A stretch of 64,000 nt of DNA from a virus. Of the stretch, positions 14,025-39,538 are shown piece after piece (within the stretch, counting starts at the first letter, position 1; each line of letters starts with the position of its first letter). A program made the translations under genes and the position numbers. The notes under the pieces were generated by a model. That model was not told the origin of the DNA and made no database searches. It saw only the letters and a program-made list of their open reading frames with translations. The stretch lies in IMG/VR virus record IMGVR_UViG_3300045988_154892; one strand, written 5' to 3'.

Positions 14025-14105
14025 GCTGGCGTGGCGGAATTGGTATACGCACTGGCTTCAAATACCAGGATCACAGATATGTGGGTTCGAGTCCCACCGT
14101 CAGTA
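14025..14105 (+). tRNA. tRNA-Leu (anticodon CAA), class II, no encoded CCA
   Basis: Hand-folded cloverleaf. Acceptor GCTGGCG/CGTCAGT has two G:U pairs. D arm GCG-GAATTGGTATA-CGC. Anticodon loop TTCAAAT (CAA at 14059-61, C31:A39 mismatch). Long variable arm. T arm GTGGG-TTCGAGT-CCCAC. Confidence 0.75.
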
Positions 14106-14261: not shown

Positions 14262-14335
14262 GGATCATTAGTTCAGTAGGTTAGAACGCCCAGCTCATAA
14301 CTGGGAAGTCACTGGTTCAAGTCCAGTATGATCCA
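14262..14335 (+). tRNA. tRNA-Met or Ile2 (anticodon CAT), no encoded CCA
   Basis: Perfect cloverleaf. Acceptor GGATCAT/ATGATCC. D arm GTTC-AGTAGGTTA-GAAC. Anticodon arm CCCAG-CTCATAA-CTGGG. T arm ACTGG-TTCAAGT-CCAGT. A paired 1:72 argues against an initiator. Confidence 0.9.
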
Positions 14336-35374: not shown

Positions 35375-36109
35375 TTGAAATACATGGGATCAAAATCTCG
35401 AATATCGAAATATATAATTCCGATTATTCAAAAGAGGATAAAAGATTATAATATAAAAACGTACATAGAGCCGTTCTGTGGTGGATGTAATATTGTTGAT
35501 AAGATTCAATGTGATACGAAGATTGCATCCGATAATCATAAGTATCTTATAGAAATGTTCAAGAATCTAAATCAGATTCAAAGACTTCCAGAGTTTATTA
35601 CAAAAGAACACTATTCAAATGTAAGAGAATGTTTTAATAAAGGTTTAACTACATATCCAGATTGGTATATTGGAGCTATTGGTTTTCTTGCAAGTTACAA
35701 TGGACGCTTTTTCGATGGCGGATACTCAGGTATTGTACATACAAAAGCTGGAACTGAGAGAAATTATTATGATGAAGCAAGAAGAAATTTATTAATGCAG
35801 ATTTCACAGTTAAAAGACATACAGTTCCAATATGGAGATTATGAAGAATTGTATTCAGATAAAATTGATTGTTTACTTTACTGTGATATTCCATATTACG
35901 GGGTAAAACAATATGGTACAAGCAAAAACTTTGATTATGATAGATTTTGGAATTGGGCTGAAAAAATGAGCGAAAAGAATATTATTCTGGTTAGTGAACA
36001 TAAAGCACCTTCAGGATGGGATTGTATTTGGGAACAGGAAGTAAAAAGAACAATTGATAATAACAAGCGTGTAAAAGCAGTAGAAAAATTATTTGAGATA
36101 AGAGAATAA
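35375..36109 (+). CDS. dam: N6-adenine DNA methyltransferase (Dam/D12 class)
   Basis: YMGSKSRISKYI, motif I EPFCGGCNI, motif IV LLYCDIPYYG (DPPY variant). The start is TTG 35375 or ATG 35384. Confidence 0.8.
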   Translation: MKYMGSKSRISKYIIPIIQKRIKDYNIKTYIEPFCGGCNIVDKIQCDTKIASDNHKYLIEMFKNLNQIQRLPEFITKEHYSNVRECFNKGLTTYPDWYIGAIGFLASYNGRFFDGGYSGIVHTKAGTERNYYDEARRNLLMQISQLKDIQFQYGDYEELYSDKIDCLLYCDIPYYGVKQYGTSKNFDYDRFWNWAEKMSEKNIILVSEHKAPSGWDCIWEQEVKRTIDNNKRVKAVEKLFEIRE

Positions 36110-36131
36110 ATAACCAGGAGATGAAGTTGTA

Positions 36132-36455
36132 ATGAAGATATCAGAATTACAAGCAGTTTGTAAGTACGATGACAGTGAAATGGAAGAAGTTAAAAACTGC
36201 CATCCAAAACAGATTGCAAGTGAAGTAATTCCTATTCCAACTTGGAAGATTAAATATAAGTATACAACTGCTCGTGGAAATCCAAAAGAAGCAGTAAAGT
36301 ATATGTTCTTAGATAAGAATGCCTGGGATTCTGTCGATCAGGAATTCATGAATTATATAAAAGAACTTAATGAAAAACATCCGGAAAGAATAGCATCAAA
36401 CGTAGAAATTCTTGACGCAGTTTATTTCGGAAAACTTTATTTAGAACTTGAATAA
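36132..36455 (+). CDS. small protein, paralog of 37961..38317
   Basis: Shares NCHPK/NVHPK, P.WK/P.YK, Y.T..GN.K and N..P motifs with the 118-aa ORF 1.8 kb downstream. Confidence 0.6.
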   Translation: MKISELQAVCKYDDSEMEEVKNCHPKQIASEVIPIPTWKIKYKYTTARGNPKEAVKYMFLDKNAWDSVDQEFMNYIKELNEKHPERIASNVEILDAVYFGKLYLELE

Positions 36456-36650
36456 TAAATATTTTTCAATTGTAATCAAATCCCTGTAATCAGGGTTGTA
36501 TAGCGAGATGGCTTGTATTACCCATGCAGCATAGTGACATGAGGTTAAAACGTAAAATCTTACACCATGACCTAAAATAATTGGTTTCTAAGCATAAGAT
36601 AGACTCCTTTAACTAATTGGTAAAATCCAAAAGTTAAAGGAAGATTACAA
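36456..36650 (+). promoter_or_regulatory. conserved structured leader with RBS-sequestering hairpin (copy 1)
   Basis: Hairpin CCCTG-TAAT-CAGGG followed by GGTTGT (36482-99). AGTGAC (36533-38), CGTAAAA (36551-57), ACACC (36562-66). CCTTTAAC (36606-13) pairs with GTTAAAGG (36633-40), which covers the SD AAAGGAAG. TTG start at 36651. Confidence 0.5.
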
Positions 36651-37697
36651 TTGAATCCGATATTCAATGAATATATCAAATTTTTAAGAGACACTTTTGG
36701 AGAAGAATTACCTTATTTAAAAGAAGGATTCTTTTGGCTTGATAAACAGATTATAAAAGGCTTTGATAGTCAACTTGTAGAACATAAATTTTACAGAGTT
36801 AAAGTATCAGATAACCTAAAAAAAGTAGAAATTCTAAAATTAAAATCTTATGAAGATCCATCTGAAGTTGACATAATAAATTGGAATACGATGGTTAGCA
36901 TCAAAGAGAATCAATTGATAGAACTTGAGCATGAATCCTTATATCTGATACGTGAGAAAATCAAAGACTATAATGCATATACTCCAATAATACCTGTTTC
37001 TATGGGTAAAGATTCTATGGTTACATGTCATTTAGTTCGAAAACTATATCCAAACACAAAAGCAATATTCAATAATACATCACTTGACTGTGCTGATACA
37101 TATAAGATGGTTAAACGATTTCCGAATTGCGAAATTATGAATCCAGACAAAGGATTTTATCAATATGTAAAATCTGATTCTATGATTCCGTCAAGATTTT
37201 CAAGATTCTGTTGTAGGATTTTTAAAGTTGGAGTTATGGTTTCTCAGCTTGATAATAAGCATCCGTATTTAATTTTTATGGGAATGAGAAATGAAGAATC
37301 AAACACAAGAAGCAATTATCAAGATGAATGGGTTAATACTTCCGAATGGGGAGACACATGTTGGCAAGGAATACTTCCTATTAGAAAGTGGACAGAGTTA
37401 GATGTTTGGCTTTATACATTTTGGAGAGATATTGAAGTCAATTCAAAATATAAAAAAGGATATTCAAGAGTTGGATGCCATTGTGCTTGTCCGTATTATG
37501 CGAAGTCAACATGGATTCTTGATAAATATTGGTATCCAAAAGCATATAAAAGATGGAGAGATATTCTAAGAGAAGATTTTATTAACAATCAGAAATGGCT
37601 GATTATGAATTGCACTATCAAAGAGTATCTTACTCAAGCATGGAATGGTGGTGTGTTTAGAAGTGAGCCACACAAGAAGTTATTGATGAATTTGTAG
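36651..37697 (+). CDS. PAPS-reductase-like PP-loop ATPase (IbrA/DUF3440-type), C-terminus in another frame to 37930
   Basis: PP-loop VSMGKDS, plus CCRIFK, GMRNEESNTR and GYSRVGCHCACPY. The frame stops at 37697. An 87-codon Zn-ribbon tail (EVIDEFVEHTGIDKQIALQYF..CCECN..CKKC) is open in the -1 frame over 37667..37930. Confidence 0.7.
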   Translation: MNPIFNEYIKFLRDTFGEELPYLKEGFFWLDKQIIKGFDSQLVEHKFYRVKVSDNLKKVEILKLKSYEDPSEVDIINWNTMVSIKENQLIELEHESLYLIREKIKDYNAYTPIIPVSMGKDSMVTCHLVRKLYPNTKAIFNNTSLDCADTYKMVKRFPNCEIMNPDKGFYQYVKSDSMIPSRFSRFCCRIFKVGVMVSQLDNKHPYLIFMGMRNEESNTRSNYQDEWVNTSEWGDTCWQGILPIRKWTELDVWLYTFWRDIEVNSKYKKGYSRVGCHCACPYYAKSTWILDKYWYPKAYKRWRDILREDFINNQKWLIMNCTIKEYLTQAWNGGVFRSEPHKKLLMNL

Positions 37698-37960
37698 AAC
37701 ATACAGGAATTGATAAACAGATTGCGCTGCAATATTTTAATAAGAAATGTTGTGAGTGCAATAAGAGAATAAAACATAAGGAAGTTCTTTCAATGAACTT
37801 AAAAATACATGGAAGACAAGTTAATAAATTCTATTGTAAGAAATGTTTGATGAAAGAATTCGATTGGACAAAAGAAGATTGGGACAAACAGGTGGAAGCG
37901 TTTAAGGCTCAAGGTTGTGCGTTGTTCTAGGTTTTATTGGTAGAAAGGTGGTGAAAAGTA

Positions 37961-38317
37961 GTGCATCCGAGTGAGTTTTTTAAGAATTGTTCTCTAAGGA
38001 CAGGAATTGATATATTTGAAATCTACGATACAGATTTAAAAGAAAAATTAAAAAATGTGCATCCAAAGAATTTCCTGAAAACAAAAATTACATTGCCAGT
38101 ATATAAAGTCAATTTATCTTATCTTACAGAAAAAGGTAATTACAAAACAGTTGACAGATATGCGGTAATGGATTCAAGTGCAGATGATGAGTATTTTGAT
38201 TTCTGGCTCGATATGTTTATGAGAGATTATAATAATGATAATCCAAATCACAAGATGATAAATTGTGAAATAAACAACATAGAAAGACTTTGCGAAGCTG
38301 TACTACCAATTGGTTAG
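37961..38317 (+). CDS. small protein, paralog of 36132..36455
   Basis: GTG start after AAAGGTGGTG. Shares motifs with the 107-aa paralog. Confidence 0.6.
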   Translation: MHPSEFFKNCSLRTGIDIFEIYDTDLKEKLKNVHPKNFLKTKITLPVYKVNLSYLTEKGNYKTVDRYAVMDSSADDEYFDFWLDMFMRDYNNDNPNHKMINCEINNIERLCEAVLPIG

Positions 38318-38524
38318 CTTTTCACCATATGTATTTAATACCTTTGTGCAGCAAAGGTTGTCACGATGATTTATAGAAGACGGATCATTGGTTAATATAA
38401 ATCGAAAAAGCAATGTGGTAGTGACGTAAAAAGACACCCACGATAAAAATGAATAAGTCTCATTTTTAAAGAGTATGGCTTTACCTCATTGAAATGAAAT
38501 AATTTTCAGTGAGGAAAGTACATA
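38318..38524 (+). promoter_or_regulatory. conserved structured leader with RBS-sequestering hairpin (copy 2)
   Basis: Hairpin CCTTTG-TGCAG-CAAAGG followed by GGTTGT (38341-60). AGTGACGTAAAA (38420-31), ACACC (38434-38). CCTCATTGAAA (38484-94) pairs with TTTCAGTGAGG (38504-14), which covers the SD GAGGAAAG. TTG start at 38525. Confidence 0.5.
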
Positions 38525-39538
38525 TTGGTACAGAAAGCTAATACAATTGAGGAACTATTAAATGATTGTCCTGTAAATCAAACGATTTGTGACAACTTAA
38601 TTCGTGCATGGGTAATTATTAATAATACAAAATATAAGAAAATCATTTGTTCAATCTCAGGCGGTTCTGACAGTGATGTAATGTTAGATATCGTTTGGAG
38701 ATGTGACAAAGATAATAAAGTAGATTATGTGTGGTTTGATACTGGACTGGAATATCAAGCAACAAAAGATCATTTGAAATTTCTTGAAGGAAAATACGAT
38801 ATTGCATTTCATTCTTACAAGGCTATAAAACCTATTCCTACATCTTGCAAGGAATATGGACAACCATTCTTATCAAAACAAGTCAGTGAATTTATCCAAA
38901 GATTACAAAAGTATAACTTTCAATGGGAAGATGAAGATTTTGACACATTATATAAGAAATATCTAAAATGTAAGTCTGCCTTGGAATGGTGGTGTTGCAG
39001 CAAAGGTAACGACAGTTGTTTCAATATTACAAGAAACAAATGGTTGAAAGAATTTATGATTGCAAATCCTCCAACGTTTAATATTTCAAACAAGTGTTGT
39101 AAATATGCAAAGAAAAATGTTGCGCATAACATTGTAAAGTATGGAATAGATGGCAAATTATTTGACTTACAGATTATAGGTATCAGGAAAGCTGAAGGTG
39201 GTGCTAGATCAACAGCATACAAATCATGCTTTGATGATAATAACGACATTGACAATTATAGACCTTTGTTCTGGTATAAAAATTCAGATAAAGAAGATTA
39301 TGAGAAAGCATATGGAATTATTCATAGTGATTGTTACTTGGAATATGGTTTAAAACGTACAGGATGTTGTGGTTGTCCTTATGGAAGAGATTTTGAGAAT
39401 GAATTAGATGTAATTGAGAAGTATGAACCTAAACTATATAAAGCAGTAACGAATATTTTCAAAGATTCTTATGAATATACAAGAAAGTACGTGGAGTTTA
39501 GAAAAATGATGGATGAGAAGGAGAGAATCAAACAATGA
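38525..39538 (+). CDS. PAPS-reductase-like PP-loop ATPase (second, divergent copy)
   Basis: PP-loop SISGGSDS, plus CCKYAKK, GIRKAEGGARS and GLKRTGCCGCPYG. Confidence 0.7.
   Translation: MVQKANTIEELLNDCPVNQTICDNLIRAWVIINNTKYKKIICSISGGSDSDVMLDIVWRCDKDNKVDYVWFDTGLEYQATKDHLKFLEGKYDIAFHSYKAIKPIPTSCKEYGQPFLSKQVSEFIQRLQKYNFQWEDEDFDTLYKKYLKCKSALEWWCCSKGNDSCFNITRNKWLKEFMIANPPTFNISNKCCKYAKKNVAHNIVKYGIDGKLFDLQIIGIRKAEGGARSTAYKSCFDDNNDIDNYRPLFWYKNSDKEDYEKAYGIIHSDCYLEYGLKRTGCCGCPYGRDFENELDVIEKYEPKLYKAVTNIFKDSYEYTRKYVEFRKMMDEKERIKQ

Follow-up and report, generated by a model that had tools for sequence, protein, structure and literature searches.

The two non-coding spacers at 36456-36650 and 38318-38524 on the + strand of the virus record IMGVR_UViG_3300045988_154892 were analyzed, and both were clearly conserved, structured intercistronic + strand RNAs in cis. 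The whole stretch analyzed, called the window here, is 64,000 nucleotides (nt) long. Each spacer lies between a small orphan gene (A1 or A2) and the gene of a PAPS-reductase-like PP-loop ATPase (P1 or P2), and the conserved fold contains both the Shine–Dalgarno sequence (SD) and the TTG start codon of the P gene. The leaders, named family 1 (F1) before gene P1 and family 2 (F2) before gene P2, very probably form a cis-acting translational gate on P. That the gate is OFF by default, with translation of A as its main trigger, is an evenly balanced proposition. The leaders are structured translational control elements, a general kind already known; as an RNA family they are new, and their arrangement is unusual. 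The helices of the leaders were numbered P0 to P5 and are always called helices here, as distinct from genes P1 and P2.

Conservation and Covariation of the Leaders

Homologs were found by searches with P1, P2, A1, and A2, which returned viral contigs of 100-216 kb, Logan and ENA metagenome contigs, and one Clostridium sp. contig. The distinct spacer sequences numbered 21 for F1 and 35 for F2. In every case, a gap of 178-207 nt separated the A homolog from a PAPS_reduct gene downstream. The F1 spacers shared 80-85% nucleotide identity, compared with 62-72% for the A gene and 71-75% for the P gene. Covariation and conservation among homologs, on which the earlier note on this DNA had staked its claim of a cis-acting element, were both clear.

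In the plain MAFFT alignment of the 21 F1 sequences, 96.1% of cells were paired. Both-side (compensatory) changes were found at 12 pairs, compared with 4.6 ± 1.1 after shuffling (0/500) and 1-6 with slid partners. The plain MAFFT alignment of F2 was 93.3% paired, with 18 compensatory pairs versus 9.0 ± 1.6. When the 35 F2 sequences were fitted to the nested helices only, the values were 96.7% paired and 22 compensatory pairs, against 9.4 ± 1.7 after shuffling (0/500) and 5-8 with slid partners; the kissing and pseudoknot helices were not in the model behind this alignment. In both families, one-sided changes yielded G-U, not A-C, on the + strand, indicating an RNA structure read from that strand. 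In addition, the single-sequence folds of spacer 1 and spacer 2 had z-scores of -6.4 and -5.0, respectively, against shuffles.

The closing helix P0 varied in sequence between lineages while its pairing was kept. The variants were CAAUUGUAAUC/GAUUACAAUUG, AACCGUAAUC/GAUUACGGUU, and UCAUAGUC/GAUUAUGA in F1, and ACCA/UGGU, GCAA/UUGC, CACCCAA/UUGGGUG, AUGUCAAU/AUUGACAU, and AUGUACAC/GUGUACAU in F2. This 5'-3' duplex, which includes the start codon, was present in 19/19 representatives with energies of -11 to -27.5 kcal/mol, and it began within the last codons of A or at most about 10 nt past the A stop. Moreover, the SD lay in the 3' arm of helix P5 and the start codon in the 3' arm of helix P0 in every representative. 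Helix P2 covaried throughout its stem and had a conserved loop, and helix P4 was a variable or optional hairpin.

Both families had the same order of elements: helix P0, helix P1 with GGUUGU, the GU/AC helix, helix P2, GUAAAA, helix P4, and helix P5. Near-invariant unpaired residues (GGUUGU, AUAGYGAC, and GUAAAA) stood at equivalent places in the two. The GU(..) after GGUU paired with the (..)AC of AUAGYGAC; therefore, the first two shared blocks of the earlier note are the two strands of one helix.

The loops of helices P2 and P5 also paired with each other. In F2, the combinations were UCAUU/AAUGA (21 sequences), UCGUU/AACGA (10), ACGUU/AACGU (3), and UCGUU/AGCGA (1, with one G-U). All five pairs of this kissing helix could form in 35/35 sequences; it was 99.4% paired, with two covarying positions. 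In F1, UUACC/GGUAA was found in 17 sequences, UCACC/GGUGA in two lineages, and UUACC/GGUGA once as a wobble intermediate. The F1 contact is less secure than that of F2, because a local apical stem (UUGG/CCAA), which competes for two G residues of the kissing pairs, also fits the data.

Structures of the Two Leaders

The sequence elements reported in the earlier note were present in both copies. A GC hairpin followed directly by GGTTGT was found at 36482-36499 and 38341-38361. The shared blocks AGTGAC, CGTAAAA, and ACACC were located at 36533-36538, 36551-36557, and 36562-36566 in copy 1, and contiguously at 38420-38438 in copy 2. The terminal hairpins carried the SD in their 3' arms (36636-36643 and 38511-38518), and the TTG starts were at 36651 and 38525. 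Four features had escaped that note: the closing helix with the start codon, the pairing of the first block with the second, the loop-loop contact, and the strict linkage to gene A.

The F1 leader spanned 36456..36665 (+). Its helix P0 paired 36467-36477 with 36643-36653, the 3' arm including the TTG start (36651-36653), and in the window the two arms were an 11-bp perfect inverted repeat. The CAA pairing with the UUG start was 12-14 nt past the A1 stop. Helix P1 was the hairpin CCCTG/CAGGG (36482-36486 with 36491-36495), followed by GGTTGT (36494-36499), and the junction helix joined GU..GC (36498-36504) to GUGAC (36534-36538). Helix P2 (36511-36515 with 36523-36527) was capped by the loop UAUUACC (36516-36522). 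The conserved CGUAAAA (36551-36557) ran into helix P4, which had two segments (36557-36562 with 36595-36600, and 36569-36572 with 36583-36586). Helix P5, formed by CCTTTAAC (36606-36613) and GTTAAAGG (36633-36640), covered the SD, and its loop GGUAA (36619-36623) paired with the UUACC of the P2 loop. An F1 equivalent of helix P3 (CAU/AUG) was inconsistent between lineages and is not claimed.

The F2 leader spanned 38310..38546 (+), and its helix P0 was extended. The outer part paired the end of A2 (38310-38322, its last codons and its stop) with codons 3-8 of P2 (38533-38546); the middle paired ACCA (38324-38327) with UGGU (38526-38529), and the inner part paired 38328-38336 with 38516-38524. 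The TTG start (38525-38527) was within the 3' arm. The helix P1 hairpin CCTTTG/CAAAGG (38341-38346 with 38352-38357) was followed by GGTTGT (38356-38361). Helix P2 was formed by 38367-38375 with 38396-38404 and 38379-38381 with 38391-38393, and its loop carried the 5-mer UCAUU (38385-38389). The invariant segment AGUAUGGCUUUA (38472-38483) preceded helix P5, in which CCTCATTGA (38484-38492) paired with TCAGTGAGG (38506-38514) over the SD; the P5 loop AAUGA (38493-38497) paired with UCAUU.

The helix between GUCAC (38360-38364) and GUGAC (38421-38425) crossed helix P3 (38415-38418 with 38438-38441; GYGR/YCRC, covarying) and is therefore a pseudoknot. It was 99.4% paired, and GUCAC/GUGAC was replaced by GCCGC/GCGGC at one locus (L378). 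A GUG/CAC hairpin inside helix P3, given by single-sequence fold prediction, was set aside in favor of the pseudoknot, since L378 keeps GCCGC/GCGGC yet breaks this hairpin. The optional helix P4 of F2 (38445-38467; AAAAAUGA...UCAUUUUU) was a 28-nt insertion in the window. Most relatives lacked it, and others had a hairpin of different sequence at this place.

Relation Between the Families and to Known RNAs

Words shared between the two spacers were at chance level, with 24 six-mers against 23.5 expected and eight seven-mers against 6.6. The collinear chain of shared words was marginal, being reached by 20/500 shuffles. With nhmmer, the profile of one family found no significant match to the other. 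Similarly, two F2 covariance models (core R1 and full R2) gave no significant detection of F1; the correct F1 site in the window scored 9.6 bits with the F2 covariance model (E = 8.7, rank 18/20). No third copy of the leader was found in the window or in the loci lacking A, and a loose DNA pattern scan of the genome contigs gave chance matches only. Thus, of the view that the leaders are paralogous, the paralogy of the flanking genes and the common architecture held, and homology of the RNA sequences was not detectable. We infer common descent of F1 and F2, rather than demonstrating it by alignment, because the flanking genes are paralogous, size and position are equal, the helix order is the same, and the tertiary contact is the same.

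A known RNA family was ruled out for the leaders by the Rfam 15 scans. With all 4227 models at the gathering score, the whole window gave two tRNAs and nothing else; the two + strand tRNA genes were at 14025-14105 and 14262-14335. At E ≤ 10, the region 36000-38700 gave only three eukaryotic matches of chance level. Furthermore, the literature search found no paper describing such an element and none in which PAPS-reductase-like genes of phages were tied to an RNA motif or a riboswitch.

Linkage of the Leader to Gene A

On the + strand, the order was a Dam-like methyltransferase gene, A1, spacer 1, P1, A2, spacer 2, and P2. Gene A1 (36132..36455) encodes a small orphan protein of 107 amino acids (aa) 5' of leader 1, and its paralog A2 (37961..38317) one of 118 aa 5' of leader 2. 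Gene P1 (36651..37930) and gene P2 (38525..39538; 337 aa), both with a TTG start, encode PAPS-reductase-like PP-loop ATPases that matched Pfam PF01507 with E = 9e-27 and 3.7e-10, respectively; P2 was also assigned to phrog_424. Proteins A1 and A2 shared 30% identity (E = 2e-12), and P1 and P2 were distant paralogs with about 22% identity. The cassette of a small gene, a gap of ~200 nt, and a PP-loop enzyme is an old tandem duplication of all three parts.

Among the 129 P starts from loci retrieved via P1 or P2 only, 81 had both A and the RNA, 48 had neither, and none was discordant, the counts being phylogenetically non-independent. A and the RNA are one accessory unit. A1 co-diverged with F1, and A2 with F2. 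The 48 loci with neither show that the P enzymes work without both. The Clostridium phages CS266P1-4, the closest cultured relatives of P2, lacked both A and the gap. Moreover, at two loci (L132:3029-3595 and L133:1725-2483), an F1-type leader preceded a short PAPS_reduct-like open reading frame (ORF) of 188-252 aa with a weak Pfam match and, across the first 200 aa, only 5.5% identity to the P1 of the window. What the leader accompanies is therefore gene A and not a particular P sequence.

Two loci with close P homologs (L004:2570-2800, P1 with 91% identity, and L056:2565-2795, P2 with 90%) had neither A nor the leader. The same non-coding sequence of ~230 nt, without an Rfam match, stood before P1 in the former and before P2 in the latter; it could be a mobile-element end or another RNA.

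The Clostridium sp. HBUAS56010 contig (SULJ01000031.1, 2948-4575) contained an A2-like gene, an F2 leader (180.7 bits), and a PAPS_reduct-like gene, which is a clue to a host among the Clostridia. A Thg1-family gene was located at 653-1510 of the same contig, near the cassette.

Proposed Gating of P Translation

In the proposed mechanism, the structured intercistronic RNA of ~190 nt would be part of an A-to-P transcript and would act in cis as a default-OFF gate. The conserved native fold buries the SD in helix P5 and the start codon in helix P0. Helix P5 is tied to helix P2 by the loop-loop contact, and the core is held by the GGUUGU-AGYGAC helix, which is a pseudoknot in F2. Because the SD and start codon are inside the conserved native fold, this fold is an OFF state for initiation. 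In a consensus scan, which gives pattern-level evidence, neither spacer had a sigma-70-like promoter or a terminator on the + strand; A and P are therefore most simply placed on one transcript.

A ribosome finishing A would then unwind the 5' arm of P0 and release the start codon of P, that is, translational coupling by RNA unfolding. This arm begins at the A stop or within about 12 nt of it, and in F2 it includes the last codons of A, so ribosomes finishing A would have to unwind P0. The long folded spacer, unusually long for coupling, would be bridged by the P0 helix. The partner of the start codon was within reach of ribosomes on A, the F2 helix including the A stop, and was marginal for some F1 members. 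When the nucleotides covered by a ribosome at the A stop were removed in a simulation, the unpaired probability of the start codon rose from 0.001 to 0.38 in F1 and from 0.33 to 0.63 in F2. Coupling by RNA unfolding is an established model, and rpmI-rplT, with a spacing of +52 nt, is the long-spacing case known for it (PMC12548453).

Besides the non-independence of the co-occurrence counts, several points weigh against this mechanism. The same simulated removal left the SD paired (unpaired probability 0.14 before and 0.14-0.21 after), so initiation may need more than the unwinding of P0. The 5' arm of the core began 10-12 nt past the stop in several F1 members, at the edge of the reach of a terminating ribosome. 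A simple coupling device needs one hairpin, not a pseudoknotted kissing-loop fold of 190 nt with a near-invariant junction. Furthermore, the RNA fills the whole gap, and its nearness to the A stop is partly trivial. A library screen, in the form in which PMC12548453 cites it, found that structure just past the upstream stop correlated negatively with coupling. The conserved core would probably be a second control on the SD hairpin, exerted through a small molecule or a protein effector, because the SD remains locked and coupling needs nothing like so elaborate and conserved a core.

Alternative Explanations

A metabolite-sensing translational OFF riboswitch is a rather unlikely alternative. 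The pseudoknotted kissing-loop core would be the aptamer, the ligand would stabilize helices P0 and P5 and shut P, and A would be a mere neighbor. The near-invariant unpaired residues GGUUGU, AUAGYGAC, and GUAAAA in both families suit an aptamer, as does the complex tertiary architecture backed by covariation. The SAM-II, SMK box, and preQ1-II riboswitches have the SD in the aptamer, and here the SD and start codon are likewise integral to the conserved fold. A candidate alternative pairing was also seen in F2, where AAAGUACAUAU of the P0 3' arm could pair with the 5' end or with the invariant AGUAUGGCUUU, whose invariance precludes a covariation check. In F1, the only alternative found was the local apical stem, a competitor of the kissing pairs. 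Nevertheless, a riboswitch leaves the strict co-occurrence with A unexplained, and it fits poorly with the intercistronic position without a promoter of its own. The leaders had no Rfam 15 match even at E ≤ 10, the families were not alignable and a common pocket was not demonstrated, and the context suggests no ligand. The riboswitch-like switch of the earlier note is borne out as a conserved, structured cis RNA containing the SD; as to switching, the conserved fold is the OFF state, and no conserved alternative fold was demonstrated. The co-occurrence with gene A and the start of P0 at or near the A stop point at least as much to coupling with A translation as to ligand sensing.

It is unlikely that the leader is a translational operator to which A, P, or a host protein binds, repressing or activating P translation. 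In favor of this, A and the RNA were gained, lost, and diverged together (A1 with F1, A2 with F2). Moreover, each family was very conserved internally yet not alignable to the other, the pattern that co-evolution with a macromolecular partner would give. In protein A, a cluster of basic residues (K26, K39, R48, K52, and K56) was conserved, and the AlphaFold2 (AF2) model of A gave weak matches to small ribosomal proteins. In contrast, A was acidic overall in both families, with an isoelectric point of about 5.3 and a net charge of -4 to -8, and thus makes an unlikely classical RNA-binding protein. The AF2 model of A1 had a pLDDT of 92.8. Compared with the PDB, the A model gave no significant fold match and thus none to an RNA-binding fold (best E-value 0.04); in BFVD, only an orphan viral protein matched. 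A also had no family annotation, with no match in Pfam, PHROG, or NCBIfam.

A gated hand-over of ribosomes seems still less probable. Here, P0 would set the A stop beside the P start, terminating ribosomes would pass to P by a shunt-like step or by very long-range reinitiation, and the effector-bound core would decide the release of the SD hairpin.

There is little likelihood that the leader is a functional RNA in its own right, partnering the PP-loop enzyme as a substrate, cofactor, or scaffold and overlapping the P start incidentally. PP-loop ATPases include many RNA-modifying enzymes, and the fold is larger and more complex than most leaders require. However, the SD and start codon lie in covarying helices of both families despite their differing sequences. 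The 48 P-homolog loci without the RNA, and the F1-type leader before the dissimilar short ORF of L132 and L133, also speak against it.

A DNA-level element, with the P0 arms as inverted repeats of an invertible segment or recombination site, is extremely improbable and the inverton reading was rejected: the arms are a perfect repeat in the window and a true inverton surrounds the leader that other lineages of the P1 homolog have, but the spacer was flipped in 0/81 A-P cassettes while that genuine inverton was readily seen both ways, the changes in the arms were G-U tolerant and strand-specific, the internal helices and loop-loop contact covaried, and there was no internal promoter.

Programmed bypass or an A-P fusion of the T4 gene 60 type was also rejected, as the frame was not conserved. 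In the window, A and P shared a reading frame (519 and 564 nt); they were out of frame at three other loci, namely L128 (529 nt), L134 (521 nt), and L015 (521 nt).

Other Features of the Locus and Its Relatives

The inverton mentioned above was found at L016:2872-3181 and L028:2704-3013, in P1 homologs with about 72% aa identity. Its inverted repeats of 13-14 nt, AATCCAATCTTTCA / TGAAAGATTGGATT, enclosed the leader and the first ~57 codons of the homolog. Segments of this type occurred in both orientations among the contigs, with about 11 loci flipped, and are therefore invertible segments switching the gene on or off. In the place of gene A, a TnpB-like ORF (OrfB_IS605 and a Cas12f1-like TNB domain) lay at L016:1814-2848 and ended ~25 nt before the inverton.

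Gene P1 was frameshifted in the window. Its ORF stopped at 37697, and the C-terminal Zn-ribbon/Cys-rich part continued in another frame to 37930. A 1-nt deletion was located near 37669/37670, with GAGCC-ACAC compared with GAGCCAAC[G/A]C in four relatives; the P1 relatives encode 426 aa. The frameshift marks either a pseudogene or an assembly error. In other P1 homologs (L038:3847-4969, also L042 and L043), the gene was split after residue ~282 by an insertion of ~1.1 kb encoding a GIY-YIG/HTH protein, which has the appearance of an intron carrying a homing endonuclease.

The Dam-like N6-adenine DNA methyltransferase gene (35375..36109, +; Pfam PF02086) was directly 5' of A1, and an NAD-dependent DNA ligase gene was downstream of the cassette. 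DNA methylase genes (C5, N4/N6, and D12) also adjoined the cassette at related loci. In addition, a PTS_2-RNA (Tpt1/KptA-type RNA 2'-phosphotransferase) gene was found at L380:239-781, ~700 nt 5' of an A1 homolog.

Significance and Comparison with Known Systems

The leaders constitute an uncatalogued, well-supported structured RNA of ~190 nt. It comes in two diverged families and combines a pseudoknot with a loop-loop contact that covaries. It occurs in metagenomic phage contigs of 100-216 kb and in the Clostridium sp. HBUAS56010 assembly contig, which may make the element experimentally tractable if the strain can be obtained. The genes very probably gated by it are abundant phage PAPS-reductase-like PP-loop ATPases situated among DNA methylases. 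If translation of A is the trigger, coupling by RNA unfolding would reach a spacing about four times as long as any known so far. If a metabolite is the trigger, the leaders would be riboswitches of a new class, whose ligand would give a hint of the role of the enzyme.

As in rpmI-rplT of the E. coli IF3-L35-L20 operon and in the MS2 coat-lysis pair (PMC12548453), base pairing here silences the downstream start, its partner in the pairing is placed so that ribosomes of the upstream ORF would unwind it, and both genes are most simply assigned to one transcript. The MS2 replicase, downstream of the coat gene, is likewise controlled by long-distance pairing. The spacing is different, being +52 nt in rpmI-rplT and +178 to +207 nt here. 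Furthermore, the spacer here is a conserved pseudoknotted kissing-loop fold in which the SD is locked separately in helix P5, and the dependence of P on A is predicted.

Autogenous operators, such as the ribosomal-protein leaders, the T4 gp32 pseudoknot, and the MS2 coat operator, also have, in a phage or operon setting, a structured start region and, possibly in common with the leaders here, a regulator encoded in cis. Unlike in those systems, the candidate regulator A is acidic and has no recognizable RNA-binding fold.

The ribosome shunt on the cauliflower mosaic virus 35S RNA is eukaryotic and scanning-dependent, and no bacterial example is known. It resembles the present arrangement in that a large folded element begins just past the stop of an ORF and initiation resumes at the 3' base of this element. 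However, the helix here contains the start codon, which is provided with an SD of its own.

Like the SAM-II, SMK box, and preQ1-II riboswitches, the leaders have a conserved pseudoknotted fold that includes the ribosome-binding site, with near-invariant junction residues. They differ in being much larger (~190 nt), intercistronic, tied to an upstream ORF, and without an Rfam match. The purine riboswitches have a loop-loop tertiary contact between L2 and L3, and in both cases two hairpin loops are joined by covarying Watson–Crick pairs. The leaders differ from them in sequence, size, and junction, and in that one of the two joined hairpins is the SD-sequestering helix itself.

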